DNA from: Gammaproteobacteria bacterium
Lineage (GTDB): Bacteria; Pseudomonadota; Gammaproteobacteria; Eutrophobiales; Eutrophobiaceae
Direction: 5' to 3'
Length of the DNA: 64,000 nucleotides
NCBI GenBank assembly: GCA_021773235.1
Contig: JAJFKL010000043.1
Coordinates: 14,072 to 78,071 of the forward strand
In this document: one piece after another, positions 6,696-36,019 of the stretch
Numbering within the stretch: position 1 is the stretch's first letter
Layout: each line of letters starts with the position of its first letter
Notes under the pieces: generated by a model
Database searches by the model: none
What the model was told of the DNA's origin: nothing
Seen by the model: only the letters and a program-made list of their open reading frames with translations
Made by a program: the position numbers and the translations under genes

Positions 6696-6821
6696 ATATG
6701 TAGTAACAAATGAATATTTATATAGCAGGTTAATTAAATTGTCATCGATGAAATATGAGGAATATTTTTTAGATTAGCATTAGAGATTAAATACTGAACA
6801 GTAATTACCTATAATTTAATA

Positions 6822-7895: not shown

Positions 7896-7914
7896 AGTGT
7901 TTCTAATATAAAGA

Positions 7915-9374: not shown

Positions 9375-9422
9375 TATATGGTTATTGCGTATAGGGGAAG
9401 GGTGCGTTAAATAGTGATGTGA

Positions 9423-9839: not shown

Positions 9840-9886
9840 TATTCAGTTCTTCACTTTTCCTAATTATTGTTGTTTATAAGCTAATG

Positions 9887-10687: not shown

Positions 10688-10791
10688 TAAATCTTCACCA
10701 TGGTTGTGATTTCAAAAATATGTTTTGACATATTAAAAGTTGCATATAAGATATAACAATAAATTATTCTTGGCAATATGGAGAACTGAAA

Positions 10792-11319: not shown

Positions 11320-11334
11320 AATCAGGAGAATAAT

Positions 11335-13415: not shown

Positions 13416-14011
13416 GCCGCTCTATCTTGTTTTTCGTGTTGTTTTTATACCTGTTAAGTTATTCAATCATTGGTCAATGGTTTGAAGTCTCTATGGTAAG
13501 GCATGTATTAATTCAGATACCCTGTCTTGTTCTGGCGGGATACTTGTTTGGCCGTAAATCCCTTATTAATAATCGGTTTCTTATTTTAATAAACGATAAA
13601 GGCCTTGCCGGTATATTGATGTGTATTTTTATCGGTGGCTATTGGATGTTGCCACGTGCACTGGATGCGGCATTGGCAGGATCAAATATGGCATTGGTTA
13701 AATATATTTCATTACCATTTTTTGTAGGAATACCACTGGCAATTAGTTGGCAAAGAATTCACCCCATTGCCAGAGCAGTAATCAAGATTGAATTCCTGAC
13801 GATGTTGTTTCGTTTAGGTTGGCTCTATCTGGTTTCTCCAAATAGGCTGTGTAATTTTTACCAATTAAATGAACAAATAATTCTAGGTAAGTGTTTTCTT
13901 ATTATTGCTACATCGCTTTCGTTGTACTGGATTTTGCAATTGTTTGCAGAGGATTATCGAGAACAGGAAACGCTGAAAAAAAATAATCTATATGATCAGG
14001 CCAGTAGTTGA
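13412..14011 (+). CDS. polytopic membrane protein, possible cytochrome oxidase assembly factor (CtaG/Caa3-type?)
   Basis: 199 aa, about 6 TM. ATGA overlap with the upstream sco. Assignment is by context only. Confidence 0.35.
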   Translation: MSRSILFFVLFLYLLSYSIIGQWFEVSMVRHVLIQIPCLVLAGYLFGRKSLINNRFLILINDKGLAGILMCIFIGGYWMLPRALDAALAGSNMALVKYISLPFFVGIPLAISWQRIHPIARAVIKIEFLTMLFRLGWLYLVSPNRLCNFYQLNEQIILGKCFLIIATSLSLYWILQLFAEDYREQETLKKNNLYDQASS

Positions 14012-14415
14012 TTTAATTTAATTTTATTAGTGATGATGTCGTCCAGAGAATATCCATCAAGGACATTTAGAAAAGCCTCGGTTGCCTCATTTAGTACCGA
14101 CTTAAGGCTGCATGCAGGGACGAAAGGGCACGCAGGTTCTGAACAATTTACTACATCCAGTGTCTGTTCTGTATTACGTATTACTTCGCCAACGCTGAGT
14201 GAGTCGGGTTCGTATGCCAACTCAAGACCACCACCACGGCCGCGTTTGGAAATAACATAGCCCAGTTTTACCAGATGGTTGACCACCTTGATTAGATGGT
14301 TGCGGGAAATATTAAATGATTCGGCAATATCGGAAATATTGCCTAGTTTTTCGGGTCTTAATGCTAGATACATTAAGACTCGCAGAGAATAATCTGAATA
14401 GCGTGTTAGATGCAT
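13996..14415 (-). CDS. nsrR: Rrf2-family transcriptional regulator, NsrR-like
   Basis: 139 aa. N-terminal wHTH (MHLTRYSDYSLRVLMYLA). Three Cys with Cx4Cx5C spacing (CSEPACPFVPAC), the NsrR pattern as opposed to the IscR Cx5Cx5C pattern. Confidence 0.75.
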   Translation of the reverse strand: MHLTRYSDYSLRVLMYLALRPEKLGNISDIAESFNISRNHLIKVVNHLVKLGYVISKRGRGGGLELAYEPDSLSVGEVIRNTEQTLDVVNCSEPACPFVPACSLKSVLNEATEAFLNVLDGYSLDDIITNKIKLNQLLA

Positions 14416-18331: not shown

Positions 18332-18357
18332 TAATTAATAGCGTTTTCAATTAATTA

Positions 18358-18393
18358 AAAAGTCGAATGTCTTCTGGCATTCGACTTTTTTTA
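18358..18393 (+). terminator. rho-independent terminator after nhaD
   Basis: aaaagtcgaatgcc-agaa-ggcattcgacttttttt: perfect 10-bp stem followed by a T7 run. Confidence 0.65.
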
Positions 18394-18644: not shown

Positions 18645-19631
18645 CTATTTGTAGTTCTCTGCATTGAACCATTTTATAGCATCTTCAAGACCTTCAATTC
18701 CGGGTCTTGATTGATAGTCTAATTTATCTTTTGCCTTATTACTGGAAAAAAACATAATTTTTTTAGACATTTTGACACTCTCTACAGTGGCTCTAGGTTC
18801 ATTATGAGTAATGCTGGCAATACGTTCCATTAGCCAGGCAATAGGCAAAACTAAATTATGGGGTAAGCTGATAGAAGGCGGCTTCATTCCTTGATTGATA
18901 CAAATATATTTCAATATCTGTGCTAACGACATATTGTCGCCACCAAGAATATAACGTTCACCAATGGTTCCTTTTTCCAATGCAAGTAAATGTCCATTCG
19001 CAACATCATCAACATGCACAATATTTAAACCCGTTTCGACATAGGCCGGCATGCGATTACGAATTGTATCAAGGACGATTCTCCCTGTAGGTGTAGGTTT
19101 GATATCGCGTGGCCCGACTGGCGTTGAAGGATTAACAATAACAACTGGGCTGGCCATATCTTTAACTAGTTTATGTACTTCTTGCTCAGCCAGGTATTTT
19201 GAACGCTTATAATGGCCAATCATATCTTCAAGTGTTACCGGCGTAGTCTCATCAGAAGGAGTGCCATCTTTATTAATGCCCAAGGTTGCGACACTACTGG
19301 TATAGACAATTTTATCAACACGGGCTTTAGTAGCAGCGATAATTAAATCGCGTGTCCCGTCTACATTTGTGGCATACATAGGAGCTGGATCAGGCAGCCA
19401 TAAGCGGTAGTCTGCAGCAATATGAAACAAAGTATCACATCCTGTGACAGCACTTTGTAAAGAATTAGAATCTCGTAGATCACCTTCAATAACTTCCAGG
19501 TCAATGCCATCAAAGTTACGTCTATCCGAACCTGGCCTGACCAATGCACGTACTTCGTGTCCGTTTTTAATGAGTAGTCGTAAGACGGAAGATCCTACAA
19601 ATCCATTCGCGCCAGTTATTAATGTTTTCAT
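18645..19631 (-). CDS. hpnA: hopanoid-associated NAD-dependent sugar epimerase (HpnA-like)
   Basis: 328 aa. Rossmann GxxGxxG (ITGANGFVGSSV) and YxxxK (YKRSKY). Typical HpnA size. Sits in the hopanoid cluster. Confidence 0.65.
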   Translation of the reverse strand: MKTLITGANGFVGSSVLRLLIKNGHEVRALVRPGSDRRNFDGIDLEVIEGDLRDSNSLQSAVTGCDTLFHIAADYRLWLPDPAPMYATNVDGTRDLIIAATKARVDKIVYTSSVATLGINKDGTPSDETTPVTLEDMIGHYKRSKYLAEQEVHKLVKDMASPVVIVNPSTPVGPRDIKPTPTGRIVLDTIRNRMPAYVETGLNIVHVDDVANGHLLALEKGTIGERYILGGDNMSLAQILKYICINQGMKPPSISLPHNLVLPIAWLMERIASITHNEPRATVESVKMSKKIMFFSSNKAKDKLDYQSRPGIEGLEDAIKWFNAENYK

Positions 19632-19649
19632 ATAGAACAGTTATCGATT

Positions 19650-22280
19650 TCAATCACGGTTTAACAATCTAGGACTCATTGAATTTAGCCATATTAATAG
19701 TGCAGGTAGTACTAGTAATGTAGAGATCATCATTGAGGCTAGCCCTAATGATAATAGTAATCCCATGCTTGCAGTACCTTGATGCGACGAAAAGGCCAAG
19801 TTCCCGATGCTACAGATAGTTGTCAATGAACTAACAATAACGCCACGAGAAGAACTAGTCATAAAAATATTTCTTTTAGTTTGCTGTTCCTGACGAAACC
19901 GGTCGGCAATATGAATGCCACTGTCGACACCAATACCTAGTAGCAAAGGTAGGCCAATAATGTTTGCAAAATTGAGTGGGATGTTAAATAACAGCATAAA
20001 GCCAAAGGTAAACGTGCCACCAATTAAAACAGATAGTAATATGATTAATGCATCTATTTTAATTTTCATTAACAAAATTAATAATATTGATATAGCAATA
20101 AATGCATAAGTAAATGCTGATTTGAACGCGGTTATAACAGCATCACCTGCTTCAATACTAATTACCGGGGAACCGATAACATTGTTATTAAATGCTTGTA
20201 GTTGTTTTACAAATCTTTTCATTGCAGCATTATTATTAAGGTTCTCAACAGGTAAAACTTGTAATTTGTAATGATTATCACTGACCCAACGATCATGGAT
20301 TTCAGCAGGGATATTGTTTGAACCTACTTCCTCGGCATTGAGGGCATCAGCTAAAGATCGCATCCTGCCAGGGAAACTATTCAACAATTGTTGTTCCACC
20401 AATTTAATTTCTTCGTTATTTTTAGACGTATTTAATTTTAGTAATAAATTATGCAGGTTGTTTTTTAGAGACAACAGCTCTTCATTTGCCGTATCTGCTG
20501 ACATGGACTCAAGCTTTTTGATTAATTTTTTTATTGTATCAAGTCGTTCGTCATTATTAATTCCAGAGATTGTGCCAGATGATGTGAGCGTTCCTAATAA
20601 TAAATTCATGTCATCAATAATAAATAATTTATCTTCCTGCTCTTCAGGTATAAAGCTATTTAGAGAAACGACATCATCTACTAATGACAATGATGTAACA
20701 TCATTTTTAGTTGATTGGATCTCAGCAGAATTTTTGTTAAGTAAAATACCACTCCATGGCGATGTTTTACTGTCTTTTAATAAATCACGATAGGTCTGTA
20801 CAGATTCATTATCAGGATCTTGAAGATTTAATGTGTTTGTATCGAAACTTATTTTATTATATTGAGAGCTCAGGCCAAGAATAATTATTAATGTGAGTAG
20901 TAGTATTTTTTTAGTATGTTTATAAGGAATGTTAATTATTATTTCTAATACAGGGTTGATGTGCTTATTCTGGGTGTCTAGCCTTGGTTTTGAATGAATA
21001 AAAGTTAAAAGTGCAGGTAATAATGTAAAAGTAAATATTAAACTGATAAACATGCCACTACCGGCAATCCAGCCTAATTCAGCCACGCCCAGATAATCAG
21101 TTGGGATAAAAGAATAAAAACCAATTGCCGTTGTTATCGCACAAAGGATTAATGACTTAAAAATATGGGTTATTGCCATTTGCAATGCATGACTACTATC
21201 AGCTATCGAAAGCTTCTCTTCTCGAAAACGCAATAGTAAGTGGATTGCAAAATCAATCCCCAGACCGATATACAGAACGGCGAATGCGACTGAGATAAGA
21301 TTTAACTCACCAATTGTTGCAGTTGCAAAAGCAGTAGTAGCGATTAAGCCAAATAGTAATGTAGTCAAACATGCAGAGACTAGCGATAGTGAGCCCAGTC
21401 CTATGGATAGAATAATCGCAACCAGGATCAAGGAGATTAAAATAGCTTGAATATTCGCTTCAGAGACACTCTTTAATTCTTCATAAGAAAGGACAGTGCC
21501 GCCTGTCAACCGGACTTGAATCGAAATATTATTAGCTAATTTTATTGACTCTATAGTTGTTCGGACATGTTCTATTATATCTTCGTCAGGTAATAAAGAA
21601 TTACTGTTATCTTTAACTTGCAAGACAATGAATTCACGATAAGTATCTTCAATCTCATCGTCAGGATTCATTAATCGTTGCCAGGATACTTGATGGCTTT
21701 CATCTTCGAGTGCGTGATTAATTTCAAGTAACAAAGGCTTAATGTTTATATCTTCGCCATCTTGTTTTGCCTGAATTGCATCGTTCAACATATTAAACAA
21801 GCCGCGTAGATTCTGGTCTTCTATCAAGGTCCCCAGGAAAGGCTGGATCGTTGCTAATCGATCAGACAGGTCTTGCAATTCATCAAGCTCTAGAAACAGA
21901 AAAGCGGACTGACGAAAGTAGGGCAAGATTGCGGGGTAATAGATATCGTTCAAGAACGTCGAATCATTTTTAAACTCGGAATACAATAGCTCTGCTGTGT
22001 CACGTGCCTGATCAGGCGTCTTTGCTTCTACAACAACAAGGATATTATCGTTAAATTGTGGAAATAATCTTTCGTACTCAATATCAAGTTGTCGCCAATG
22101 CAGATCCTTTGACAGCATGTCAGTGGTACTGGTACTCATATCAAGATTATCTTTGATATAAAATACGGCGGCGATGGTGAGCGCAACAATGCCAATGATT
22201 ATTGGAACCCGAAATTTCTCAATGAATTGCAACCAGCAAAGTATCATACGTTCGGATGCCGATGTATGGGTTTGATTCAT
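19650..22280 (-). CDS. hpnN: hopanoid biosynthesis-associated RND/MMPL transporter HpnN
   Basis: 876 aa. Two 6-TM bundles separated by large periplasmic loops, MMPL-type. Adjacent to shc and hpnG. Confidence 0.75.
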   Translation of the reverse strand: MNQTHTSASERMILCWLQFIEKFRVPIIIGIVALTIAAVFYIKDNLDMSTSTTDMLSKDLHWRQLDIEYERLFPQFNDNILVVVEAKTPDQARDTAELLYSEFKNDSTFLNDIYYPAILPYFRQSAFLFLELDELQDLSDRLATIQPFLGTLIEDQNLRGLFNMLNDAIQAKQDGEDINIKPLLLEINHALEDESHQVSWQRLMNPDDEIEDTYREFIVLQVKDNSNSLLPDEDIIEHVRTTIESIKLANNISIQVRLTGGTVLSYEELKSVSEANIQAILISLILVAIILSIGLGSLSLVSACLTTLLFGLIATTAFATATIGELNLISVAFAVLYIGLGIDFAIHLLLRFREEKLSIADSSHALQMAITHIFKSLILCAITTAIGFYSFIPTDYLGVAELGWIAGSGMFISLIFTFTLLPALLTFIHSKPRLDTQNKHINPVLEIIINIPYKHTKKILLLTLIIILGLSSQYNKISFDTNTLNLQDPDNESVQTYRDLLKDSKTSPWSGILLNKNSAEIQSTKNDVTSLSLVDDVVSLNSFIPEEQEDKLFIIDDMNLLLGTLTSSGTISGINNDERLDTIKKLIKKLESMSADTANEELLSLKNNLHNLLLKLNTSKNNEEIKLVEQQLLNSFPGRMRSLADALNAEEVGSNNIPAEIHDRWVSDNHYKLQVLPVENLNNNAAMKRFVKQLQAFNNNVIGSPVISIEAGDAVITAFKSAFTYAFIAISILLILLMKIKIDALIILLSVLIGGTFTFGFMLLFNIPLNFANIIGLPLLLGIGVDSGIHIADRFRQEQQTKRNIFMTSSSRGVIVSSLTTICSIGNLAFSSHQGTASMGLLLSLGLASMMISTLLVLPALLIWLNSMSPRLLNRD

Positions 22281-22329
22281 TATTTGTTATCCAGTTTTGA
22301 CAAGCTAAACGGAGCTTGTCTGATAATCA

Positions 22330-23076
22330 CTAGACTCTAAACACGTATTCTTTTTCATCATCGCGTTCTATATCAGGTGGGTAACTGAGACGTTTGTCAT
22401 CATAATACTGTCTTCGATGATCGCCTTCAGCTGCAGCATTATATGTGACGTAAAGTACTCTTCGTTGCTCATTCGTCATATTTGGTTCTGAACGGTGTGG
22501 TGCAAATGAATCAAAAAAGACAGCATCGCCCGGATTGGTTGTTACTGATACATAATCCAGAGCATCTTCTTCAAGTGGTTTCCATGCTTCGCCTATTAAA
22601 CCCTTATCGTGATATCCGCTTGCCATTTGTAGACAACCATTTTCAATGGTAGAAGCATCAACACTGACTAAGGCAGTAATATGTAATTTGGAATAACGAT
22701 CCCAACCGGCTTGTACATCTTGATGCGCTTTAAAACCATCACCGCCAGGCATCTTGAAATTGATTTTGTCTTTAAACAAGATTGCTTCATCATTAAATAG
22801 TTGTGATGTAATTTGTTGTATCTCACCACGCATGAAAAGGTCGCTGAAGCCCTGGTGAAAGGGTTCAATATCTTCCATTCGTGACAATATGCGATCTCCT
22901 GAGGCCAGTTTACTTTTTTCGAAATACATCATGTATTTACCGGGGACTTCAGGATAATTTGTAACTTCTTCAGTCCATTCAATAATTTCCTGCATTCGCT
23001 CAGCGTTATATAAATCTCGTATAACTAGAAATCCTGTGCTGTTGAATTCTTCGATTTGTTCGTTGCTTATTTTCAT
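22330..23076 (-). CDS. phytanoyl-CoA dioxygenase (PhyH) family Fe(II)/2-oxoglutarate oxygenase
   Basis: 248 aa. HxD...H facial triad (KAHQDVQ ... FAPHRSEPN). Confidence 0.65.
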   Translation of the reverse strand: MKISNEQIEEFNSTGFLVIRDLYNAERMQEIIEWTEEVTNYPEVPGKYMMYFEKSKLASGDRILSRMEDIEPFHQGFSDLFMRGEIQQITSQLFNDEAILFKDKINFKMPGGDGFKAHQDVQAGWDRYSKLHITALVSVDASTIENGCLQMASGYHDKGLIGEAWKPLEEDALDYVSVTTNPGDAVFFDSFAPHRSEPNMTNEQRRVLYVTYNAAAEGDHRRQYYDDKRLSYPPDIERDDEKEYVFRV

Positions 23077-23150
23077 GATAGATGGTGTTTTAAATTAATA
23101 ATGTCGCTCTTATAAACCAGTTAGTAATCTATGACAAGTGACAGTAACAA

Positions 23151-23870
23151 TTAACTGTCAGAATAGAGAAAATGACTGTCTTTTAGTAGTTGTGCAATTT
23201 CTGATAAAGATGCCAGTCCTTTTTTATAACCGCTTGCCAATGAAGATATCTCTCGAATTTGTTTAGGTTTCAAAATACAGGACAACATAAAATTAAAAAT
23301 TCTGGGCTGCCCCAGATTGTTGGTGTGTTTCAAAATCGCCTCCGGTATGGCTGTGTCAGCATCATCAGAAATTGTTCGTATCACAAGTAGGTCAAGGTTG
23401 TTTTCCGTTGCCGTTTCTGCAATCGCTGCGCTTTCCATATCCACGGCCAAGGCCCCTGTGTTTTGTGATAGATGTTGCTTGTCCGCTATGGACGCACAAA
23501 TTTCTTTACATGATGCAATATCACCACTAAAGATATTAGGTTCTGACGGAAGAAAATGTTCCGATACTCGGCTTAGCCAATCCTCGGATACCGAATAACG
23601 ATTCTCCCCATTAATAATGGAACTAGCCAGAATAACATCGCCTGACTTTAAAGAATTATCAATTGCTCCCGCGACTCCCCAACTTATCAAGGCATCTACT
23701 TTTAAAGCGACTAGTTTTTTTGCAGCAAAGAGAGCGGATTCATGACCAATACCAGACAGACATAAAAAAACATCTTGCTGTATTTCGATAGGCAGACCAG
23801 CTTTTAATTTTTTACTAGAAAGACACTTTGCCTCTGCAGGTAAAGCTGCAATGATGCCAATTCTGCTCAA
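23151..23870 (-). CDS. hpnG: hopanoid-associated phosphorylase/nucleosidase HpnG (PNP/MTAN fold)
   Basis: 239 aa. N-terminus RIGIIAALPAEA like MTA/SAH nucleosidases. The apparent start is TTG at 23870. Confidence 0.65.
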   Translation of the reverse strand: MSRIGIIAALPAEAKCLSSKKLKAGLPIEIQQDVFLCLSGIGHESALFAAKKLVALKVDALISWGVAGAIDNSLKSGDVILASSIINGENRYSVSEDWLSRVSEHFLPSEPNIFSGDIASCKEICASIADKQHLSQNTGALAVDMESAAIAETATENNLDLLVIRTISDDADTAIPEAILKHTNNLGQPRIFNFMLSCILKPKQIREISSLASGYKKGLASLSEIAQLLKDSHFLYSDS

Positions 23871-23887
23871 GACTTAATGTAGGGCGT

Positions 23888-24009
23888 GTCTAAAAATAGT
23901 GGTTTTTTCGTGAGTGCAAGGGTGCTTCGCGCGGAGAACCGGAGTGTATTAACTACACATGAGGATTCGAGCACGAGACAGCCACAGCAATCGTGGAAAA
24001 AATGCATTT
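23888..24009. repeat. intra-operon repeat element, copy A (between shc and hpnG)
   Basis: About 75% identical to 45505..45656. Shared blocks: gtgagtgcaagg, cgcgc-gaaccgga, tacatgagga, caatcg-ggaaaaa. Internal hairpin gtgta-ttaac-tacac here versus atgtat-aaata-atacat in copy B (compensatory change). Confidence 0.6.
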
Positions 24010-25977
24010 TTAGGTGTGCCCTGTGAGATTGCGGTAACGGGCTAGTGCCCAAAGCGGAAAATATTTCGTGTAACCATGATATTTTAAATAGAACACACGT
24101 GGAAATCCTGGTGCCGTATAACTGTCATCATACCAATGACCATCCGTAGACTGGTTTGCTATGAGATAGTTAATGCCGCGTTTTACAGCATCTGTTTCTG
24201 CTTCGCCGACTGCTAATAATGAAAGTAAAGCCCATGCCGTTTGGAAGGCGGTGCTTTTATATGGGCGGTAATGTCTTGGTGGGTAATAACTATCATTACT
24301 CTCTCCCCAGCCACCATCTTCATTTTGTATTTCTTGAAAGTACGTAACGGCTTTTCTAATGTATTCCTGTTGAGGATCTTCATCAGTCAGTTCAAGTGCC
24401 GTCAGTACCGACCAGGTACCATAGATATAATTTGTTCCCCAACGACCAAACCAGGAACCATCTTCTTCCTGATCCGATTTTAAAAATTTAATGGCATCGC
24501 TGATAGTTGTTGCATATTTCTCTTTATCGGCGAGGGACAATAATGCGATTACACGACCGGTTACATCGGCCGTAGGCGGATCGAGTAGGGCGCCATGATC
24601 TGCGAAGGGAATGGCATTGAGATAATACTGGGTATTATTCACTTCAAATGATCCAAAACCGCCACCGCTGGATCGCATACCCGCCACCCAAACTGCTGCT
24701 CGTTCAATAGCTTCCGTATACTTCTCATTGCCAGTACGATGCATCGCCCAGGCGACCATGGAAGTATCATCCAGATCAGGGTAAAAATAATTACTGTATT
24801 GAAACGCCCAGCCTCCACCAGCAAGATGCGGTCTTGGTATGCGCCAATCACCGGGTTCATCGCTTAGCTGTCGATCTTTAAGCCAATCGAGAGCATGTTC
24901 AATCTCCGGGGTGATGTTTGCTTCGGTTTCCGTTTCGATCATTGCCTGTCCGGCCAAACATGTGTCCCATACGGGAGATACACATGGTTGAACATACATG
25001 CTATTACCGCGTTTGGTTAATAATGCATCAATAGCTTGTCGTGCCAGCTTGCGATCAGGATGCTCTTTCGGATAACCCAAAGCGACCATCGACTCAAACA
25101 CATTAACCATTGCTGGAAAAATACCACCAATGCCATGTTCTTCATTCATCCGCGCCAGGAACCATTGTTCACATTTACGGATAGAGTATTGGCGTATAAA
25201 TTTTGGTACTAGTTTTTCTGCCATGCGACCAATATTGTCAAGCAACAGAAAAGCTCTACTAAGCGTTGTGGTTACTTTGAAATAATGTTGCTCATCTTCA
25301 GGCGGTGTTATGAATAATTCTCTAATATCAATGCCGCGAGAATTTACAGCTAAGGGTTTCATCGTGCATAAAACAAATAGAGGCACCATTACCGTACGTG
25401 ACCAATAAGAAACCTTGTCTATATGGAATGGAAACCACTTCGGTAAAATAATCACTTCTGCAGGAATAAAGGGAACCGCTCTCCACGGGACCTGGCCAAA
25501 TAAAGCCATCGTGATTCGTGTAAATACATTGGCGTGTGACGCGCCGCCATGATTCAAGATCATATTCTTGGCTCGAACCATGTGTTCATCGTGTGGGTCA
25601 TCGCCTGTGATCTTCAAGGCATAGTAAGCTTTGACTGAACAGCTGATATCAAAATCACCACCGGTATAGAGAGACCAACCACCTTCTTCATTTTGTTGGT
25701 CACGTAAATATTGTGCGATCTTTTGTTCGGTTTCATCGTCGATTTCACCGACGAAGTGATTCATTAAAATATATTCAGCAGGGATAGTGCAGTCGGCTTC
25801 GAGTTCATAGACCCAATGACCGTCATCGTGTTGTTGCTCAAGTAATTTTTCTTTAGCAGATGATATAGTTTCATCCAGATTATTTATGTTTTTAGATGAG
25901 TGAGATTCATCTAATGGATGATTGGTGATATTTTCGTTTCTTGTTTCGAGGTTCATTACTATCGTTTGACAATCCAC
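24010..25977 (-). CDS. shc: squalene-hopene cyclase
   Basis: 655 aa. Multiple QW motifs. Catalytic DxDDT motif (PDLDDTSMV). Terpene cyclase size. Confidence 0.9.
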   Translation of the reverse strand: MDCQTIVMNLETRNENITNHPLDESHSSKNINNLDETISSAKEKLLEQQHDDGHWVYELEADCTIPAEYILMNHFVGEIDDETEQKIAQYLRDQQNEEGGWSLYTGGDFDISCSVKAYYALKITGDDPHDEHMVRAKNMILNHGGASHANVFTRITMALFGQVPWRAVPFIPAEVIILPKWFPFHIDKVSYWSRTVMVPLFVLCTMKPLAVNSRGIDIRELFITPPEDEQHYFKVTTTLSRAFLLLDNIGRMAEKLVPKFIRQYSIRKCEQWFLARMNEEHGIGGIFPAMVNVFESMVALGYPKEHPDRKLARQAIDALLTKRGNSMYVQPCVSPVWDTCLAGQAMIETETEANITPEIEHALDWLKDRQLSDEPGDWRIPRPHLAGGGWAFQYSNYFYPDLDDTSMVAWAMHRTGNEKYTEAIERAAVWVAGMRSSGGGFGSFEVNNTQYYLNAIPFADHGALLDPPTADVTGRVIALLSLADKEKYATTISDAIKFLKSDQEEDGSWFGRWGTNYIYGTWSVLTALELTDEDPQQEYIRKAVTYFQEIQNEDGGWGESNDSYYPPRHYRPYKSTAFQTAWALLSLLAVGEAETDAVKRGINYLIANQSTDGHWYDDSYTAPGFPRVFYLKYHGYTKYFPLWALARYRNLTGHT

Positions 25978-26086
25978 AGCGATGTTAAATTAGGGCACAT
26001 AGTGACAATCATTAAAAATTATTAATGTTTGTCGCTACTCTCTTTCCCCTCATTCTTATCAGTGTTTGTCATGCAACGCGCTGATA

Positions 26087-27145
26087 TCAACAGAGTTTCT
26101 CATGAATGTCTGCCATAGGCAAACGACGGCCACTGAATCGGAAAAGGGTCTTTAAAGCCCACTCATTGCCAACAAAGAGGCTGGTGAAAAATATCGTCGC
26201 TTTGACGCTGCGGCGGCTTATTTTTACTTCTTGACCGGTAGTAAAATTAGGCTTTTGCCGGATCTTTTCAAGCGTTAATACAGCCATTCCCAAAGCCCAT
26301 AGACAAAAACGACGCAGGCCCTTTTCTTTAGCAGGTATTTTCAGGGTATACAGTAAGGCATTGTGAATATGAGCATGCGCAACACCAAGCAATTCAATCA
26401 AGGCCTCATCAAACCCGGCTTCATTTTTGCCAAGTACCTTATGGCGTATATCGACCCCATATTTATTGAAAATATCACGTGGTAACCAGCAAGCCCCGCG
26501 TTCATGGTCTTCCCAGATGTCCTTCAAAATATTGGTCATTTGCAATCCCTGACCAAATGACACGCCTAATTGCATCATTTCTTCTCTTTGGGCATCAATT
26601 TCAGGGGAATAATCACAGAATAATTCGGTCAGCATCTCTCCAACCACGCCGGCAACGTAATAACAATATTGCCCCATGTCTTTCAAGTCAGCCATTCCAT
26701 CCAGCGTCTCGGCATCTTGATAACGAACCATGCCCTCGGCCATGATTGAGACACAGCGTTCGAGTGCTGTTCGCTGTCGTTCATTAAAACCATGGGTGAT
26801 TCGAATCACTGGAGCTGTATTGGCAATTAGATCATGCTCTGCCTCAGTGGCGGTTGGGGATAATAAAGGAAACAGGCCTTCAGCAAAGGTTTCAGCGCCA
26901 TCAGTACCTTTCACTACTTGAATAAATTGCTCAGCGTATTCACGTTTCAAGGCGGCCGTCATCAATTTATCATCTTCAATCGTATCGGCTATACGACATA
27001 AGAGATAGGCATTGCCAACAACCTCACAGAGTGATTCTGGTAATTGTGGAATGGTCAGTGCAAATGTACGGGAGACGTGCTGCAATATCTCATTCTGATA
27101 GGCGATATCATCCAGCTCGGTCGTAAATTCGTTTTTAGACTTCAT
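26087..27145 (-). CDS. squalene synthase (trans-isoprenyl diphosphate synthase, head-to-head; SQS/HpnC-D family)
   Basis: 352 aa. Asp-rich motifs CRIADTIEDD and NILKDIWED, plus YCYYVAGVVGEM. Its length fits a single-enzyme squalene synthase. Confidence 0.75.
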   Translation of the reverse strand: MKSKNEFTTELDDIAYQNEILQHVSRTFALTIPQLPESLCEVVGNAYLLCRIADTIEDDKLMTAALKREYAEQFIQVVKGTDGAETFAEGLFPLLSPTATEAEHDLIANTAPVIRITHGFNERQRTALERCVSIMAEGMVRYQDAETLDGMADLKDMGQYCYYVAGVVGEMLTELFCDYSPEIDAQREEMMQLGVSFGQGLQMTNILKDIWEDHERGACWLPRDIFNKYGVDIRHKVLGKNEAGFDEALIELLGVAHAHIHNALLYTLKIPAKEKGLRRFCLWALGMAVLTLEKIRQKPNFTTGQEVKISRRSVKATIFFTSLFVGNEWALKTLFRFSGRRLPMADIHEKLC

Positions 27146-27439
27146 TCTTTAAAATAATCCATTAAAAAACAATGTGTTATAAAAAGCAGCTATAATATTA
27201 AGCCCTATCAGCATGAATCTTGTGCAAAGCATCAGAAATCATGATGTTACCGGGTATAATTCCAGAAAAATGATACAATTCAACAATTAGGGCGATTCGG
27301 TGCTGCACATTACAGCCTCAATTATACGGATGCAAATAATCAATTCTGAATCCCCAAGACTAATTTTAATGAATGGAATTTAAATGTCTGATAATTTTCC
27401 GGCATTTCACACACCTTATATATAAAAGAGAGTAAAAGA

Positions 27440-29119
27440 GTGAATTCAGTTTCTGACATCATTCCGTCGGCAGGCATTACTGACGCTGATAATCAACCGA
27501 AGCAAATTGATTGGCATGCCGGTTCAAATGGACAGTTATTTGAAGTAGAAGCCTTGCCGGAAAGACTCTGCTCGCTTGATGTGCCATTTTCACTGGTATC
27601 AGATCAATCTCAAATCAAATTAGGGCTCGGTGGCTCAATCCATCTCGATGATAAAGTTGAGGATGAAAACGCTTATCAACATTTGGCCTTTGTACCGAAG
27701 CAAACGATCCAGGCATTGGGCAATAAACAGTTTTGTCATGATTATGCGATTAAGTATCCGTACATGACGGGTGCCATGGCAAATGGTATCGCCTCTGTCG
27801 AATTAGTCGAGGCCATAGCCAAGGCGGATATGCTGGCATCATTTGGTGCTGCAGGTTTATCGTTGGCAGAAGTTGAAAAAGCAATTCAGCGTATACAAGC
27901 CTCTATCCCAAACAAACCATTTTGTTTTAACCTTATCTATAGTCCGAATGAAAAGGGTCATGAAGATGCCGTAGTCGATCTCTATCTACGCTATGGTGTT
28001 GATCTGGTAGAAACCTCAGCTTACATGAAACTCACTTTACCGGTGGTACGTTATCGTGTGAAAGGTATTCATAAAGATGCACAAGGTAATATCGTTGTTC
28101 CAAATCGAATTATTGCCAAGGCATCACGTGTTGAACTGGCGAGTAAATGGTTTAGTCCTCCACCAGAAAAATTACTCAATGAGTTAGTAGCTCAGGGCGC
28201 AATTACTGAAGCAGAAGCTGGGCTAGCCAAAGATATTCCGATGGCACAGGATCTGACTGTCGAAGCTGACTCAGGCGGACACACAGATAATCGTCCAGCA
28301 ATAACACTACTACCAACGATGTTGGCCTTACGTGATCAAATACAAGCGGAATATAATTATGCACATGAACTGCGTGTTGGTGCAGCAGGCGGTATTGCAA
28401 CACCTGCTTCTGCCCTAGGCGCCTTTGCGATGGGTGCGGCGTATATTGTTACAGGCACGGTAAATCAAGCCTGCAAAGAATCAGGTTCATCGGATATTGT
28501 CAGAGAGATGTTAGCCAATACAGGACAAGCCGATGTGACGATGGCGCCGGCAGTTGATATGTTTGAAATGGGTGTGAAGTTACAAGTTTTAAAACGCGGT
28601 TCTATGTTTGCCATGCGTGGGAATAAACTTTATGAGCTATACAAAAAATACGCATCGATTGATGAAATACCAGAAAAGGACAAAGCCAATATAGAAAAAA
28701 CAATTTTTAAAATGTCCTTAGAGGATGTTTGGCAAAAGACCTATGATTTTTTTAGTGAACGCGATCCTTCACAAGTAGAAAAAGCAAAGAATGACCCGAA
28801 ACATAAAATGGCATTAATTTTTCGCTGGTACCTTGGCTTATCATCGCGTTGGGCAAATGCCGGCGTAGCAGATCGTCAAGTGGATTATCAAGTCTGGTGT
28901 GGCCCTGCCATGGGTGCCTTCAATGAATGGACACGTGATACGTTTTTGGCAACAACGGAGAAACGTGATGCAGTAACGGTTGCAATGAATATTATGTTTG
29001 GTGCGGCATTCTTAAGTCGTGCGAATGGAATTTTAAAACAAGGTGTTGAGCTTGCTGGTGTATTAACCCAGTTCCAACCGATGCAACTTGATGCAATAGA
29101 AAAATATTTAACTGAGTAA
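27440..29119 (+). CDS. pfaD: PfaD-family trans-acting enoyl reductase (FMN/TIM-barrel, 2-nitropropane dioxygenase-like)
   Basis: 559 aa. Highly conserved PfaD block KYPYMTGAMANGIASVELV. Confidence 0.9.
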   Translation: MNSVSDIIPSAGITDADNQPKQIDWHAGSNGQLFEVEALPERLCSLDVPFSLVSDQSQIKLGLGGSIHLDDKVEDENAYQHLAFVPKQTIQALGNKQFCHDYAIKYPYMTGAMANGIASVELVEAIAKADMLASFGAAGLSLAEVEKAIQRIQASIPNKPFCFNLIYSPNEKGHEDAVVDLYLRYGVDLVETSAYMKLTLPVVRYRVKGIHKDAQGNIVVPNRIIAKASRVELASKWFSPPPEKLLNELVAQGAITEAEAGLAKDIPMAQDLTVEADSGGHTDNRPAITLLPTMLALRDQIQAEYNYAHELRVGAAGGIATPASALGAFAMGAAYIVTGTVNQACKESGSSDIVREMLANTGQADVTMAPAVDMFEMGVKLQVLKRGSMFAMRGNKLYELYKKYASIDEIPEKDKANIEKTIFKMSLEDVWQKTYDFFSERDPSQVEKAKNDPKHKMALIFRWYLGLSSRWANAGVADRQVDYQVWCGPAMGAFNEWTRDTFLATTEKRDAVTVAMNIMFGAAFLSRANGILKQGVELAGVLTQFQPMQLDAIEKYLTE

Positions 29120-29124
29120 TAGTA

Positions 29125-32100
29125 ATGTCTAAAAAAGAAAATAATCAGATGAAACCTCTTGCCATCGTAGGCATAGGTTGTCTCTTCCCTAAAGCAAATA
29201 ACGCCGAAGAATATTGGGCCAATATTCGAGAAGGCGTTGATGCGATTACAGATATTCCAGAATCACATTGGAAGCCTTCGGATTATTTTGACGAAGACAA
29301 ATCAGCACCAGACATGACCTACGGTAAACGCGGTGGTTTTATCAATGCGATGGATTTCAATCCACTGTTATACGGAATGAGTCCAAACAATATAGAAGCG
29401 ACAGACACGACTCAGTTACTCGGAATGATGGTCGCACGACAAGCTCTATTGGATGCGGGTTACTCAACAGGTAAGGATGCAGGCGATGGTCGTGAGTTCG
29501 ATCGTGATCGTACCAGTGTTATTCTCGGTATCACCGGTACTTTAGAATTAGTCATCCCATTAGGCGCAAGGCTCGGACACCCTATCTGGCGCAAAGCACT
29601 TGCCGATGCCGGCGTAGATCCTGAAACTACCGAAGATGTTGTCCAACGTATCGCTGATGGTTATGTGCCTTGGCAAGAAAATTCATTCCCGGGTTTATTA
29701 GGTAATGTTGCTGCAGGAAGAATAGCGAATCGTTTTGATCTTGGTGGTACTAACTGCGTGGTCGATGCAGCTTGTGCGAGTTCATTAAGTGCGGTTCATC
29801 TCGCAGCATTAGAACTCAGTGCTGGTCGTGTAGACATGGCCATAACCGGTGGTATGGATACATTCAACGATATCTTTATGTATATGTGTTTTAGTAAAAC
29901 ACCTGCATTATCACCAACGGGAAACAGTCGACCGTTTGCAAAAGAAGGAGACGGTACGATTCTTGGTGAAGGCTTGGGTGCCGTTATATTGAAACGATTA
30001 GAAGACGCTGAACGAGATGGCGATAAAGTCTATGCTGTTTTAAAAGGCATGGGTTCCTCTTCCGATGGCAAGGGTAATGCGATCTACGCACCCAGTGCAG
30101 AAGGACAAACCAAGGCGCTATGGAACGCGTATCGCGAAGCAGATGTTACGCCAAGAAGTATAGAGTTAGTTGAAGCACATGGTACCGGGACATCTGTCGG
30201 TGATGCAGTTGAAGCCAAGGCCTTGTCCGGTGTTTACAGTCAGGATAATGAAGATGAAACCTGGTGTGCCGTTGGTTCAGTAAAGTCGATGATAGGGCAT
30301 ACCAAGGCAGCAGCAGGTGTCGCCGGACTTATAAAAACGGCAATGGCATTAAAATATAAAGTCTTACCGCCAAGCATAAAGGTTGATGAGCCTTTAGAGA
30401 TTATTAATCCCGGAACGGCACCCATTTATCTTAACTCAGTAAAGCGCCCTTGGTTAAAAACACAAGCGACACCACGGCGTGCAGCGTTGAGTGCATTTGG
30501 TTTTGGTGGTAGTAATTTCCATTGCGTGTTGGAAGAAGCAGAAGAAACAAAGACAGAGATAGAATGGGACGGGCAAGTATTAATTATTGCACTCAGTGCC
30601 GATTCGAAAGCAGAATTAATAAATAGATTACCGGATGCTGCCATATTAGCTTCGCCAGAGCAGCTTCGATTCTTTGCCTATGATTCATGTCAATCATTTA
30701 AGGTTGATGCAGCTCATCGTTTAACCATTGTTGTTGATAAGACAAATACAGATGTCACAAAACACATTGCAGATGTTAAACAACAACTAAATGAATCATC
30801 TGAAACAACATGGCAAAGACCAAACGGAGTGATGTATAGCTCCGGTGAAACAGATAATAAAATTGCCTTTGTTTTTCCTGGACAGGGATCTCAATACGTA
30901 GGGATGTGTCGTGATCTGGCTTGTCAGTTTCCGCAATTCTCAGGGGCACTTGAAGAAGCAAACCATCTCTTTATTGAAGCGACAGGTAAACAAAGTCTAG
31001 CAGATGTCTTATATCCTATTCCTGTCTTTTCCAAGACGGATGAAAAAGAACAGGAAAGTACATTACGCCAAACACAGAATGCACAACCTGCAATTGGTGC
31101 GGTGAGTGTTGGTGTGTTAAATATATTAAATCATTTTTCTGTTGAACCAACGGCAGCGATTGGCCATAGCTATGGTGAACTTACCGCTCTTTCTGCAGCG
31201 GGAGTATACAATACAGAAACCTTACATCGTTTATCACGAATCCGTGGTGAACTCATGGCCGCAGGCGAGGGTGATCGAGGATCAATGTTGGCGGTGGTTG
31301 CGTCATATGAACAAGTCGAATCATTGCTCAAAGAAAATAATATAGAGCTGATTATTGCCAACCATAATTCGCCGAGTCAGGTTGTCCTTTCTGGCGCGAC
31401 AGATCAAGTTGAACGTTTTGCCAAGATCGCAAAAGTTGAAAAAATTCGTGCGATTAAACTACCCGTTGCAGCTGCCTTTCATAGCCCCTTTGTTGCTGAT
31501 GCAGCTAAACCCTTCGGGGAGGCGTTAGTGCCATTTAAATTTTCAACAAATAAATATCAGGTGCTTTCAAACACAACAACAGAAGCCTATCCAAAAGAAG
31601 CTGATGCAGCAAAGCAGCTACTAGCAAACCAGTTAGCAGCGCCGGTTCGGTTTGTTGAGCAAGTAGAAAGATTGTATGCGGAAGGGTTTAATACCTTTGT
31701 TGAAGTAGGACCAGGCAAAACATTGACGGGGCTCGTTGGTGCAATCCTGGCAGATAAAGATTTTACTGCTATTGCTGTAGACGCATCTGCAGGCAAGAAA
31801 CAAGGACAATATGACTTGGCTATGGCATTGGCCAGTCTCGCGACAAAGGGAGTTAATGTTGATCTAACAAAATGGGATGCACGATGTTCGGAGTTAGAAA
31901 GACCCGCAAAAGACGCCAAGCCAGCAATGACAGTATCGATCAGTGGTGCCAATGTAATGTTACCGCGAGAATCCAGATCACCAAGCAAACCCCGGCCACC
32001 CAGTAAACCAAAGAAGACCATTATCAATATGACGGATGAAGTAAAACAAATTCCACAAACGACTACTCCTGTTGTACCACAACAAAATAATGGCTTATTA

Positions 32101-35100
32101 CAAGCAACTCAGGAAAGTATTCTTGCCTTGCAAAAAATGCAGGAACAAACAGCGCGGTTACATCAGCAATATCTTGAAGGACAGGAAACAGCACAAAAAT
32201 CTATTCAGTCATTATTAGAACAACAACAACGATTGATGTCTGGGCAACCATTAGCTGCAGTACCTCAACAAGCAGCGCAACAGCCCACACAACAACAAAT
32301 AAAATTAAATGTCCCTGCTCAAGAAATAAGTGTTTCACCAGCACAGGTTGAAAAACCAATTGTTAAAGAAAGCGAAGAATCAAAACAAACAAGTTCTATA
32401 ACTACTGAACAATCAGATGTTGATATTAATAACCTGTTATTAAACGTGGTCTCAGAAAAAACCGGTTACCCACTAGAAATGCTAAGTCTCGATATGAGTC
32501 TGGATACAGATCTTGGTATTGATTCGATCAAACGCGTGGAAATTTTATCGGCACTGCAAGAAAAGTTACCCTGGTCGGCAGCAGTAAACCCGGAAGAATT
32601 AGGGACCTTTCAGTTCTTGCAACACATCGTTGAGTTTATTGTTGCTGGAAGACCTGCTCATGAAGCATCAACACAGATAGCGGTAGTAGTAGAGGCAAAA
32701 CAAGTTGTCGCAACCGATAGTAATTTTGAAAAAACACTATTGAATATAGTCGCAGAAAAAACGGGCTACCCGATCGAGATGTTGGATCTGGAAATGAATC
32801 TCGATAGCGATTTGGGGATTGACTCGATTAAGCGCGTAGAGATCTTGTCGGCATTGCAAGAAGCCATGCCAGAATTACCAGTGGTTAGTCCAGATGAATT
32901 GGGGCAGTTACAAACACTACGGTCAATAACAGAATTATTTGATTCAGAACAAACTGTAGCAACATCAGAACCATCTATACAGACTGCATCGTCAGCAACA
33001 ACTCAAAACAGTGGCTTTGCAGAAACATTATTAGAAGTTGTTGCAGATAAAACGGGTTATCCAACTGACATGTTAAGTCTAGATATGAATCTAGATAGTG
33101 ATTTGGGTATTGATTCAATTAAGCGAGTAGAAATACTCTCGGCCATACAAGAACGACTTCCTGAATTGCCTGCTGTAAGCCCAGATGAAATGGCCGCTTT
33201 GCAAACACTGCAATCTATCGTTGATGTATTTAATGTGGCTGACGTTGTTACATCGAGCGCACCGCAAAAAGCTGATTCAGACCTATCAGTAATTTTACTT
33301 GAGGTTGTTGCAGATAAAACAGGTTACCCCGCCGAGATGTTAAATCTGGAAATGAATCTGGATAGTGATTTAGGCATAGATTCTATCAAACGAGTTGAAA
33401 TCTTATCAGCATTGCAAGATAAAATGCCAAATCTCCCGGTAGTTGCCGCAGATGACCTTGCCGCCTTACAAACCCTGCAACAAATCATAGACTATATGAA
33501 TGAGCAAACGGGCGAGAAGGCCCCAGAAACGTATCAGGGACAACAGGTAGAAATAAGCAAGAGCAATGATGCCAAAGAATCAAGACTGGTTCGCAGTGTT
33601 GTACATACTACTCCTATCGAACATGCGGAGAAAAGAAAGACGATTGCATTTGATCAGGCTAAAGAGATTTGGTTAAGCAAAAACGGTGGTGCGTTAGCTA
33701 AGCAATTAGCAGAAGAATTAAAAAGCCATGGTTATAAGACACGACTCGTTGGCAAGAATGTAAAACCCAATGACAAGCAGGGTGCTTTAATTCTCTTTGC
33801 TGATAATAAGTCAGGTAAACAAGACCTGCTGGATGCTTTTACATTAATGCAAATATGCAGCGCATCGCTTAAAAAATCTAAAGGACTTCTGATTTCGATT
33901 ACTACACTGGGTGGTCGTTTTGGTTTCGATGGCAATATAAGCGGTAATGCTGAACAAGCAGGACTTTACGGGCTTATAAAAACAGCAGATAAGGAATGGG
34001 ATGACGTTAGTTGTAAATCAATTGATGCTGATTCAAGTACATTATCTATCCCCTTACTCTATGAAGAGGTCTTTCTTGAGGGTCCATTGGAAACAGCTCT
34101 GGTAGATGATGAGATTATCGAATTAACCTTACATGAAGAAGCATTTGGTGGACTTGAAACTGAACATACCCTGCTAAGTGAAAAAGATTTAATCGTCATA
34201 TCAGGTGGGGCACGTGGTGTAACAGCGGAGGTGGCAGTAAAAATTGCAGAGTCCTACCAATGTAATCTTTTATTGTTGGGTCGTAGTCCTGAACCGGAAG
34301 ACGAAGCAGAATGGTTGATGACATTAACTGATCCAGCAGCGATAAAAAAAGCAATTCTCGATAATTCAGATGAAAAGCTTAAACCGGCTGAATTGGAAAA
34401 GCGTTATCAATCGGTACTAGCCAATCGTGAGATAAGAAAGTCTTTACAACGCATTCAACAAACTGGCGCGAATGTTCAATACGCGTCAGTCGATGTTACT
34501 GATAATGACGCTGTTGCCAATGTAATTGATATGGCACGTATTGAGTTAGGTAATGTGACCGGCATAATCCATGCAGCCGGCGTTTTGGCAGATCGAATAA
34601 TTGAAGACAAGACGACTGAACAATTTAATTCGGTTTATTCTACTAAGGTCGATGGATTGCAAAGCTTACTCTCCGCAACACGAGATGATGAATTGAAACT
34701 AATGGTGTTGTTTTCATCGACCACGGCACGTCTGGGACGTAAGGGGCAGGTTGATTATGCCGCAGCGAATGAAGTACTGAATAAAATCGCGCAAACAGAA
34801 AATCAACAACGCAAAAACTGTAAGGTGCTGTCGGTTAACTGGGGTCCATGGGACGGTGGCATGGTAACACCTGCCTTGAAAAAACTATTCGCAGAAGAGG
34901 GCGTTGGTGTCATTGGTCTAAATGCTGGTGCAGATTATTTAATACAAGAGATAGAATCAACTGGTCCAGTTGAAACAGTTGTCCTCGGTGAAGCAGATAA
35001 TGTCCTTAAGAAAATACCATTAAATAATTCATTAGCCATAGAAGAACGTGGTGATTTAGCAATCGCCTTTGAGCGAGATCTATCTGTTAGTTCGTATGAC

Positions 35101-35907: not shown

Positions 35908-36019
35908 TTACAACATTCGTCTATTTCTTATTAAAAAAAGCTTTGTTTTAAAATCGGTAGGGGAGCTTGAAAGCTATTTCGCACTGCTTAGACTCATAAA
36001 CCGAGAATAGAATTTAATA

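Follow-up and report, generated by a model that had tools for sequence, protein, structure and literature searches.

In canonical hpn clusters, as known from Rhodopseudomonas palustris TIE-1, Zymomonas and Burkholderia and represented in the TIGRFAM Hpn families, shc, hpnG, hpnN and hpnA share one orientation with the gene for a squalene-forming enzyme. Bacteria reportedly make their squalene either by the HpnCDE route or, as in Methylococcus capsulatus and Thermosynechococcus, with a single squalene synthase (SQS). Gene neighbourhoods of 'Group 1' phosphonolipids are likewise said to have been delineated. One of these, 'Burkholderiales_CDP-OH', has a seven-gene core of a fused phosphoenolpyruvate (PEP) mutase (Ppm-PntC), phosphonopyruvate decarboxylase (Ppd), a 2-aminoethylphosphonate (AEP) transaminase, a second PntC, a 2-oxoglutarate/Fe(II) oxygenase, a cytidine diphosphate (CDP)-alcohol phosphatidyltransferase and an LPG-synthase-TM protein; it is predicted to make a 1-hydroxy-AEP lipid, and its product was never characterised (Li & Horsman 2022, PMC8942020). 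Physical linkage of shc with ppm was found in Roseomonas, for which an 'undiscovered terpene-phosphonate' was proposed (Guzman et al. 2021, PMC8776678). Here we analysed a stretch of 64,000 nucleotides (the window) from a gammaproteobacterial contig (JAJFKL010000043.1, assembly GCA_021773235.1, positions 14,072 to 78,071 of the forward strand). We consider it probable that the window carries the core operon of a hopanoid pathway spread over several loci, plus a predicted phosphonate-tailoring dioxygenase encoded within that operon.

Six intact and co-oriented open reading frames (ORFs) occupy positions 18645-27145 on the minus strand, with intergenic gaps of 18-139 bp and in the transcription order sqs, shc, hpnG-like, PhyH-fold dioxygenase, hpnN, hpnA (Table 1). 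The squalene-hopene cyclase (SHC) scored 792 bits against TIGR01507 (cut-off 431) and aligned over residues 37-650 to the A. acidocaldarius enzyme (1gsz; E = 3e-126). Its DLDDTS stretch at residue 401 falls on D374-x-D376-D377 (DVDDTA) of that enzyme, preserving the DxDD(T) protonation motif, and it holds six distinct Qx2-5GxW (QW-type) repeats, one of which fits the strict pattern. The catalytic aspartates, which an earlier reading made from the letters alone (the sequence-only reading) had singled out for checking, are kept; judged by its motifs SHC is catalytically intact, with hopene/diplopterol as its predicted product. HpnN and HpnA passed their family cut-offs (TIGR03480, 849 bits, cut-off 752; TIGR03466, 494 bits, cut-off 368), while HpnN scored 583 bits against the strict equivalog NF052374, below its cut-off of 1100. 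The hpnG-like gene is the fastest evolving of the cluster. Its product scored 170.5 bits against TIGR03468, just below the cut-off of 187.1 and followed by PRK07077 at 103 bits; its VDMES and SDD motifs align to the Glu/Met/Glu and Asp197 positions of MTAN and are kept in 64 orthologues.

The sequence-only reading had seen one SQS-type enzyme where hpnC, hpnD and hpnE might have been expected, and this was upheld. The gene product matches Pfam SQS_PSY (194 bits), and its best NCBIfam is squalene synthase TIGR01559 (119 bits, below the cut-off of 287), ahead of HpnD (70), HpnC (45) and CrtB (45). Its Asp-rich motifs DTIEDD and DIWED align to those of solved squalene synthases. A VKISRR stretch aligns to the VKI(T/R)K region of eukaryotic SQS, which may bear on the NADPH-dependent second half-reaction. 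The gene adjoins shc in 60 related loci. No second SQS_PSY gene was found in the annotated cluster or the sequence flanking it, and no ORF scanned there matched an HpnE-type amine oxidase. A sigma-70-like promoter match upstream of sqs was the top-scoring site in our scan, and a terminator-like hairpin lies between the convergent nhaD (end 18331) and hpnA (end 18645); both are consensus matches only, and promoter-like sites across the region are fewer than in shuffled sequence. These putative signals fit one sqs-to-hpnA transcription unit. We judge it very probable that the locus is a functional hopanoid operon.

Table 1. Features of the window (positions counted from its first nucleotide).
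Feature	Position	Strand	Description
sqs	26087..27145	-	first operon gene; 352 aa; predicted single eukaryote-type squalene synthase; SQS_PSY and Asp-rich motifs
shc	24010..25977	-	squalene-hopene cyclase; 655 aa from GTG; true start maybe a few codons downstream
hpnG-like	23151..23870	-	purine-nucleosidase/phosphorylase; 239 aa; TTG start
'phyH'	22330..23076	-	248 aa; Fe(II)/2-oxoglutarate dioxygenase of the PhnY/PhnY* family; predicted to hydroxylate C1 of an AEP-type head group
hpnN	19650..22280	-	RND (HAE3/MMPL-type) hopanoid transporter; 876 aa; TIGR03480
hpnA	18645..19631	-	hopanoid-associated NAD-dependent SDR ('sugar epimerase'); last operon gene; TIGR03466; start 18 bp past hpnN end
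Sigma-70-like promoter match	27321..27350	-	TTCAGA-18-TATAAT, 10/12 positions; in the 294 bp between the divergent sqs and pfaD, upstream of sqs
Bidirectional intrinsic-terminator-like hairpin	18357..18390	.	15-bp stem, flanked by A-run and T-run; consensus match only
pfaD and PfaA-like megasynthase, then sugar-phosphate transferase	27440..37432		transferase with Bac_transf/CoA_binding_3
Gene block absent from the congeneric MAG Bin_105	5880..14415		see text
RHS-repeat protein	51421..62563		3553 aa; the span given includes the overlapping DUF6714 ORF
DUF6714 small ORF	61979..62563		overlaps end of the RHS-repeat protein

We profiled SHC relatives by scanning one genome per species. Among the 75 loci recovered, ~70 come from uncultured marine Gammaproteobacteria (labelled Thiotrichaceae bacterium UBA973, UBA7357, UBA7359, UBA4486, 'Legionellales' and the like), the closest SHC being 96% identical, and nearly all of these ~70 keep the order sqs-shc-hpnG-(phyH)-hpnN-hpnA. 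In the supplement of Francis et al. 2021 such metagenome-assembled genomes (MAGs) are assigned to GTDB o__UBA4486, g__UBA7359, a group of North Sea bacterioplankton with small genomes (~2.5 Mb). Before blooms in the North Sea, UBA4486 comes close to 1% of the bacterioplankton. One of them, MAG 20100303_Bin_105 (g__UBA7359, 99.3% complete; hereafter Bin_105), shows synteny with the window between nuoL and pfaA, and the lengths of nuoL, psd, PCuAC, sco1, nhaD, the six cluster genes, pfaD and pfaA are identical or nearly so in the two. An exact look-up of nuoL led only to a 6-kb Logan contig and gave no extension of the window. The co-oriented hopanoid cluster with its HpnG, HpnN and HpnA homologues, as described in the sequence-only reading, was confirmed, as was its nuo/gsp context, nuoLMN and gsp genes both being present in the window.

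The gene between hpnG and hpnN had been named phyH, and this label did not hold beyond the fold. The protein matches the generic Pfam PhyH domain (73 bits), and its only strong NCBIfam match is the methylphosphonate hydroxylase PhnY* (NF052437, 197 bits). Among 1.84 billion representative proteins, 216 relatives reach E <= 1e-30. Outside the sequence cluster of the window protein itself, identity does not exceed 47%, and several relatives with 39-45% identity carry a fused HD domain. In one such fusion (P0136) the HD domain is PhnZ (TIGR03276, 204 bits) and the dioxygenase half scores just 231 bits on the PhnY* model, so the window protein is as PhnY*-like as genuine PhnZ-PhnY fusions. Close homologues carry the JGI label '2-aminoethylphosphonate dioxygenase'. 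A sequence search of the PDB found no close solved structure (best hit 30 bits, to unrelated PhyH-fold enzymes). Phytanoyl-CoA hydroxylase was considered and rejected, since the generic PhyH domain was all that spoke for it, and both the named families and the fusions nearest to this protein are phosphonate hydroxylases.

The metal triad H118, D120 and H194 and the 2-oxoglutarate-binding R205/R206 are invariant. Basic and polar residues common to the subclade of the window protein and the PhnZ-fused enzymes (R66, K102, K104, K108, R195, K228) are candidates for substrate binding, while Q122, W125, D126 and Y128 are specific to the subclade. Copies embedded in hopanoid operons and copies linked to Ppm have in common an invariant FKAHQDVQAGWD loop and 75 invariant positions. 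The two kinds interleave in a neighbour-joining tree (no support values) in which the PhnZ-fused enzymes form the outgroup. By homology the dioxygenase is a member of a biosynthetic subclade of the PhnY/PhnY* phosphonate alpha-hydroxylase family.

Orthologue contexts were sampled by exact look-up of homologues, in one annotated plasmid and in 80 metagenome loci retrieved with a family alignment (51-97% identity). Hopanoid genes lie nearby in 16 of the 80; another count of 16 of the 80 places the dioxygenase directly beside Ppm and/or Ppd, usually with a nucleotidyltransferase, and 10 of the 80 have the nucleotidyltransferase only. The hopanoid-linked set takes in every locus with sufficient flanks whose dioxygenase is at least 61% identical to that of the window (13 loci), and also L129, L132 and L139 (55-56% identity), where shc-hpnG-hpnH is 5 kb away. 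Both gene sets form a single block, sqs-shc-hpnG-PhyH-hpnN-hpnA-HpnL-(CDP-OH)-NTP transferase-Ppm/PntC fusion-Ppd, in L082 and L087, high-G+C gammaproteobacterial contigs whose SHC is 58% identical to that of the window. Ppm-PntC and/or Ppd also stand beside hopanoid genes in L044 and L054 of the SHC scan. On a Rokubacteria contig an HpnN-like MMPL gene is followed by PhyH, PMT, CDP-OH, SDR and amine oxidase genes, and on a Rhizobium rhizogenes plasmid cytidylyltransferase, PhyH and LicD genes are consecutive. A tblastn search of plasmids for Burkholderia CDP-OH clusters gave no Burkholderia match.

Two observations on gene content belong beside these contexts. In L086 (1203-10644) the dioxygenase orthologue and an NTP_transf_3 gene come directly after phoB-phoR-pstSCAB-phoU, which hints at control by phosphate starvation in some lineages. 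A small (~200 aa) CDP-alcohol phosphatidyltransferase-like gene, not found in the window, sits between hpnN and hpnA in L007, L012, L017, L018, L020, L022-L025, L059 and L062 and occurs also in L092, L093 and L100-L102; its best named match is archaetidylinositol-phosphate synthase, at just 50 bits.

The proposed pathway would run as follows. SQS would join two farnesyl diphosphates into squalene, which SHC would cyclise to diploptene/diplopterol; HpnH, encoded elsewhere, would add an adenosyl side chain, from which HpnG would remove adenine to give ribosylhopane, the bacteriohopanepolyol precursor, and HpnN would carry hopanoids towards the outer membrane. Using Fe(II), 2-oxoglutarate and O2, the dioxygenase would hydroxylate the carbon adjoining phosphorus in an AEP-type head group, which might be free, activated with cytidine monophosphate or already lipid-bound. 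Its presumed phosphonate partners (Ppm-PntC, Ppd, AEP transaminase, PntC, CDP-alcohol phosphatidyltransferases and HpnL) lie beside hopanoid genes in relatives, and the acceptor could be a hopanoid or a glycerolipid. PhnY, PhnY* and FzmG are 2-oxoglutarate-dependent hydroxylases of the carbon next to phosphorus (PMC8942020), and this chemistry, with the accompanying AEP gene set, makes a C1 hydroxylase of an AEP-type head group the most economical reading. On balance we think it likely that the dioxygenase acts as a phosphonate alpha-hydroxylase of a head-group pathway.

Whether the phosphonate is tied to the hopanoid itself is a separate matter. A functional tie is argued by the interleaving of phosphonate genes with three hopanoid loci in UBA7359 and their union in a single block in other lineages, by the independent shc-ppm linkage in Roseomonas (PMC8776678), and by a published survey (Lawrence et al., 10.1101/2025.07.29.667474). 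The supplementary tables of that survey give, within Gammaproteobacteria, correlations with SHC of r = 0.43 (p = 3e-58) for PEP mutase and r = 0.38 for Ppd, and they count a CDP-alcohol phosphatidyltransferase family 1409 times near shc, against 1398 for hpnG. Its main text is silent on the hopanoid-phosphonate link that these tables make visible (10.1101/2025.07.29.667474). Our literature search pairing phosphonolipid with hopanoid returned nothing relevant, nor did one pairing hopanoid with phytanoyl-CoA dioxygenase or one on PhnY, PhnZ and methylphosphonate. To our knowledge, no phosphonate-bearing hopanoid has been described. Attachment of the head group to a hopanoid is a tentative suggestion, which we would rate as doubtful; the specific route, in which (1-hydroxy-)2-aminoethylphosphonate would be attached to bacteriohopanepolyol by way of the AEP genes next to hpnH and the CDP-alcohol phosphatidyltransferase/HpnL genes next to hpnIJK, is put forward with the same reserve.

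Several points weigh against a hopanoid core operon with a phosphonate-tailoring dioxygenase. Its support is homology and gene neighbourhood throughout, HpnG and SQS fall under curated equivalog cut-offs, the dioxygenase is far below that of PhnY* (197 versus 500 bits), and the tree that places it is a neighbour-joining one that carries no support values. The hpnH, ppm, ppd, pntC and CDP-OH transferase genes lie outside the window and were taken by name from the annotation table of a congeneric MAG. Burkholderia may account for the published SHC-Ppm correlation. The dioxygenase is missing from about 16 related hopanoid clusters, and three loci (L099, 8128-14388; L100, 1951-6199; L102, 7070-14008) read sqs-hpnG-PhyH-hpnN-(CDP-OH)-hpnA, hpnG following sqs without a gap and without an shc; either shc is elsewhere in these or the gene set works without cyclisation. 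The dioxygenase-free clusters and the shc-free loci indicate that the coupling of hopanoid genes and dioxygenase is not obligatory. Against strict coupling there are also the dioxygenase orthologues in purely phosphonate contexts, and in the 64-kb window no phosphonate gene was found beyond the dioxygenase.

This last result is also what one would expect if the dioxygenase acted on the hopanoid itself and had no phosphonate role here, introducing the C-30/C-31 hydroxyls of pentol/hexol-type bacteriohopanepolyols or oxidising the (phospho)ribosylhopane formed by HpnG. We know of no enzymes that make these extra side-chain hydroxyls, a gap that such an activity would fill. The gene stands between hpnG and hpnN in more than 40 species, and it is under stronger constraint than either, with 95-97% identity among the closest relatives compared with 81-88% for hpnG and hpnN; its clade-specific loop HQDVQAGWDxY is unlike that of the PhnZ-fused enzymes. 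However, the hopanoid-embedded copies are 53-58% identical to, and interleaved with, copies that lie by Ppm-Ppd-PntC or pst/phoU with no hopanoid genes nearby, the HQDVQAGWD loop is invariant in both contexts, and the congeneric MAG encodes a whole AEP pathway. We regard a hopanoid-directed dioxygenase as improbable, and prefer the phosphonate alpha-hydroxylase.

The sequence-only reading had noted that hpnH is missing from the window and proposed that it be sought elsewhere in the genome. Our query was a bona fide Defluviicoccus HpnH (TIGR03470, 540 bits) from a classical hpnC-hpnD-hpnE-shc-hpnG-hpnH locus. With it, tblastn found no HpnH homologue in the window, in agreement with that reading, and in the gammaproteobacterial relatives none was found in the 10 kb to the left or right of the gene. 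Searched against a database of 5.8 billion proteins, it returned Rhodospirillales-like proteins for all of the 120 best matches listed, which is uninformative for this lineage; each of these 120 has the Pfam architecture PF04055+PF11946 (radical SAM and DUF3463). In distant relatives, hpnJ (745 bits), hpnK (336) and hpnL (259) lie around the same cluster, along with a class-III aminotransferase and a CDP-alcohol phosphatidyltransferase-like gene.

The gene content of Bin_105 was read from the MAG annotation table in the supplement of PMC8371827. Its contig NODE_444 encodes MlaA (hpnS-type), MlaC (hpnM-type), a GT2 glycosyltransferase and a 376-aa radical-SAM protein of PF04055+PF11946 architecture, then dxs; an AEP transaminase (class-V), Ppd, Ppm-PntC and PntC are directly beside the hpnH-architecture gene and dxs. 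On contig NODE_2, at 364-371 kb and ~40 kb past the shc operon, there follow CDP-OH, YdjC (HpnK), a B12 radical-SAM protein (HpnJ), GT21, LPG_synthase_TM (HpnL) and a second CDP-OH. The hpnH-architecture gene and the hpnI/J/K/L loci of this syntenic MAG lead us to expect C35 bacteriohopanepolyols; for the source genome of the window we infer from its congener that hpnH is encoded at another locus and that extended C35 products are made. The suggested search for hpnH was in this way answered at the level of the congeneric MAG.

An alternative would be that the cluster makes only C30 hopanoids (diploptene/diplopterol) in a genome devoid of hpnH, the HpnG-like protein being a relic or a general nucleosidase. 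This would account for the absence of hpnH from the window and from the 10 kb flanks in every gammaproteobacterial relative, and for an HpnG-like protein that is under the TIGR03468 cut-off and evolves fastest. It sits poorly with the HpnG catalytic motifs kept in 64 orthologues, with hpnJ/K/L, modifiers of the C35 side chain, in the clusters of relatives, and with the radical-SAM+DUF3463 gene that adjoins MlaC/MlaA-like genes and dxs in the syntenic MAG. The survey cited above (10.1101/2025.07.29.667474) pairs SHC with HpnH throughout Gammaproteobacteria (r = 1); nearly all its SHC genomes have HpnH, HpnG occurs only in genomes with both, and of five genomes in order UBA4486 it counts two with HpnH and one with SHC. 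A C30-only pathway is in our estimation very improbable, and a C35 pathway with hpnH at another locus is retained.

Also very improbable is that the dioxygenase is a catabolic PhnY-type enzyme, an operon passenger that scavenges phosphorus from dissolved phosphonates. The family does include catabolic PhnY/PhnY* and PhnZ fusions, and one orthologue follows pstSCAB-phoU. This role was rejected, since no PhnZ/HD-oxygenase partner occurs in the window or near the dioxygenase in any of the 80 metagenome loci and no phosphate is released without PhnZ; moreover, the PhnZ-fused sequences are the outgroup of the tree, and the position inside hopanoid operons is kept across distant lineages including Rokubacteria.

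By these comparisons the cluster is an old, vertically kept lineage trait, neither rare within the lineage nor a recent import. The conserved gene order, the identities of all six proteins, which fall together along a graded series of ~70 genomes as vertical descent predicts, the G+C content of the cluster (0.35-0.43), which equals that of the window, and the flanks nuo, psd, sco1, nhaD and pfaDA, syntenic with Bin_105, all point to old vertical inheritance. On the same grounds a recent horizontal gain by an AT-rich marine genome was rejected as extremely improbable, although the best SHC matches beyond the lineage, in Alphaproteobacteria and high-G+C Gammaproteobacteria, share only ~50-58% identity. 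The rarity and possible acquisition from outside that the sequence-only reading had raised do not agree with a cluster conserved in ~70 species-level genomes.

Divergent from sqs are pfaD (TIGR02814, 640 bits) and a 2260-aa PfaA-like KS-AT-4xACP-KR-DH protein. The sequence-only reading had linked this neighbour to coordinated membrane-lipid engineering. The adjacency is real in the window, and it is kept in 26 of ~70 loci, mostly those of closer relatives; pfaB, pfaC and pfaE were not found in the window, so the full pfaA-E set of a polyunsaturated fatty acid synthase is not assembled there. In Bin_105 a KS+FabA (PfaC-like) gene lies 11 kb further on, beyond a variable island of toxin-antitoxin and O-antigen genes that follows pfaA. 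It is possible that pfaDA and the hopanoid genes are co-regulated through their shared 294-bp intergenic region.

On the other side of the cluster, NhaD is encoded in the window and in close relatives; in L007-L025 and other distant loci a Mrp/Nuo-type antiporter run (Proton_antipo_M) lies beyond hpnA, ~7-12 kb downstream of shc. A predicted Na+/H+ antiporter therefore recurs by the hopanoid cluster in two non-homologous forms. Hopanoid genes correlate with osmotic-stress functions in the survey of Lawrence et al. (10.1101/2025.07.29.667474). The gene block listed in Table 1 is absent from the otherwise syntenic Bin_105; it comprises a PAS-HD-GYP regulator, a CBS protein, a truncated globin, a NirC-like nitrite/formate channel, a COX2/COX1 pair, SCO1, an unknown ORF and an Rrf2 regulator. 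Its COX2/COX1 pair is divergent (COX1 Pfam 170 bits, CtaD equivalog only 65 bits), and the block may be a nitric-oxide-related heme-copper oxidase module. The 3553-aa protein combines DUF7948, a beta-propeller, eleven Glucodextran_B/Ig-like repeats and RHS repeats in a polymorphic-toxin-like architecture, and the DUF6714 ORF at its end is a candidate for an immunity gene.

Among molecular fossils hopanoids are major ones, and little is known of which organisms make them in the oxic ocean. In UBA4486, a gammaproteobacterial order that is little studied but widespread in the plankton, the hopanoid system is conserved, looks complete and begins with a single SQS; its 'phyH' gene reveals that hopanoid genes and those for aminoethylphosphonate head groups are recurrently linked. 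If that link is functional, it points to a new lipid, or failing that a co-regulated phosphonolipid, gives HpnL and the CDP-alcohol transferases near shc a testable function, and suggests a product for the 'Group 1' phosphonolipid clusters, the commonest uncharacterised family of ppm neighbourhoods. A phosphonate-bearing hopanoid, if real, would be a lipid class never described, made by the abundant marine UBA4486, with versions in high-G+C Gammaproteobacteria, Rokubacteria, Roseomonas and perhaps Burkholderia. Should the link prove non-functional, the locus is an ordinary hopanoid cluster in a new host.

Compared with the canonical hpn clusters, the window has the same co-oriented shc, hpnG, hpnN and hpnA next to a squalene-forming gene, and its SHC, HpnN and HpnA pass curated family cut-offs. 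It differs in having one SQS in place of hpnC/D/E, in lacking an adjacent hpnH, and in the PhnY-family dioxygenase inserted between hpnG and hpnN; the congeneric MAG has its hpnI/J/K/L, hpnM/S-like and hpnH genes elsewhere. Like the single-enzyme synthases of bacteria, its SQS is ~350 aa long, has both Asp-rich motifs, resembles eukaryote-type SQS more than HpnC, HpnD or CrtB and is encoded directly upstream of shc. Unlike them it is divergent (119 bits for a TIGR01559 cut-off of 287; ~25-30% identical to solved SQS), and its activity is predicted.

The dioxygenase resembles PhnY (2-AEP dioxygenase), PhnY* (methylphosphonate hydroxylase) and FzmG in its PhyH fold, HxD...H triad and Arg, and shares most of its conserved polar and basic residues with the PhnZ-fused PhnY-type members. 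In contrast to PhnY/PhnY*, it scores below the equivalog cut-off, has no PhnZ partner and belongs to a separate subclade with the invariant HQDVQAGWDxY loop, a subclade found with biosynthetic (Ppm/Ppd/PntC/LicD/CDP-OH) or hopanoid genes. The parts list of 'Burkholderiales_CDP-OH' accompanies hopanoid genes in L082, L087 and Bin_105, a likeness of gene content and not of oxygenase sequence. Of the seven-gene core the window holds only the oxygenase, embedded in the hopanoid operon; the other parts are scattered beside hpnH and hpnIJK in the congeneric MAG and contiguous with the hopanoid genes in L082/L087. The 'hybrid' clusters of Roseomonas (PMC8776678), compared here by their description, likewise join hopene cyclase and PEP mutase genes physically; they are alphaproteobacterial, were linked by genome mining only, and no PhnY-type gene was discussed for them. 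Culturable species with such linkage are Roseomonas aerilata, R. nepalensis and R. oryzae. Taken together, these comparisons lead us to conclude that the locus is a cluster of a known kind with a previously unrecognised, putative phosphonate-tailoring component.

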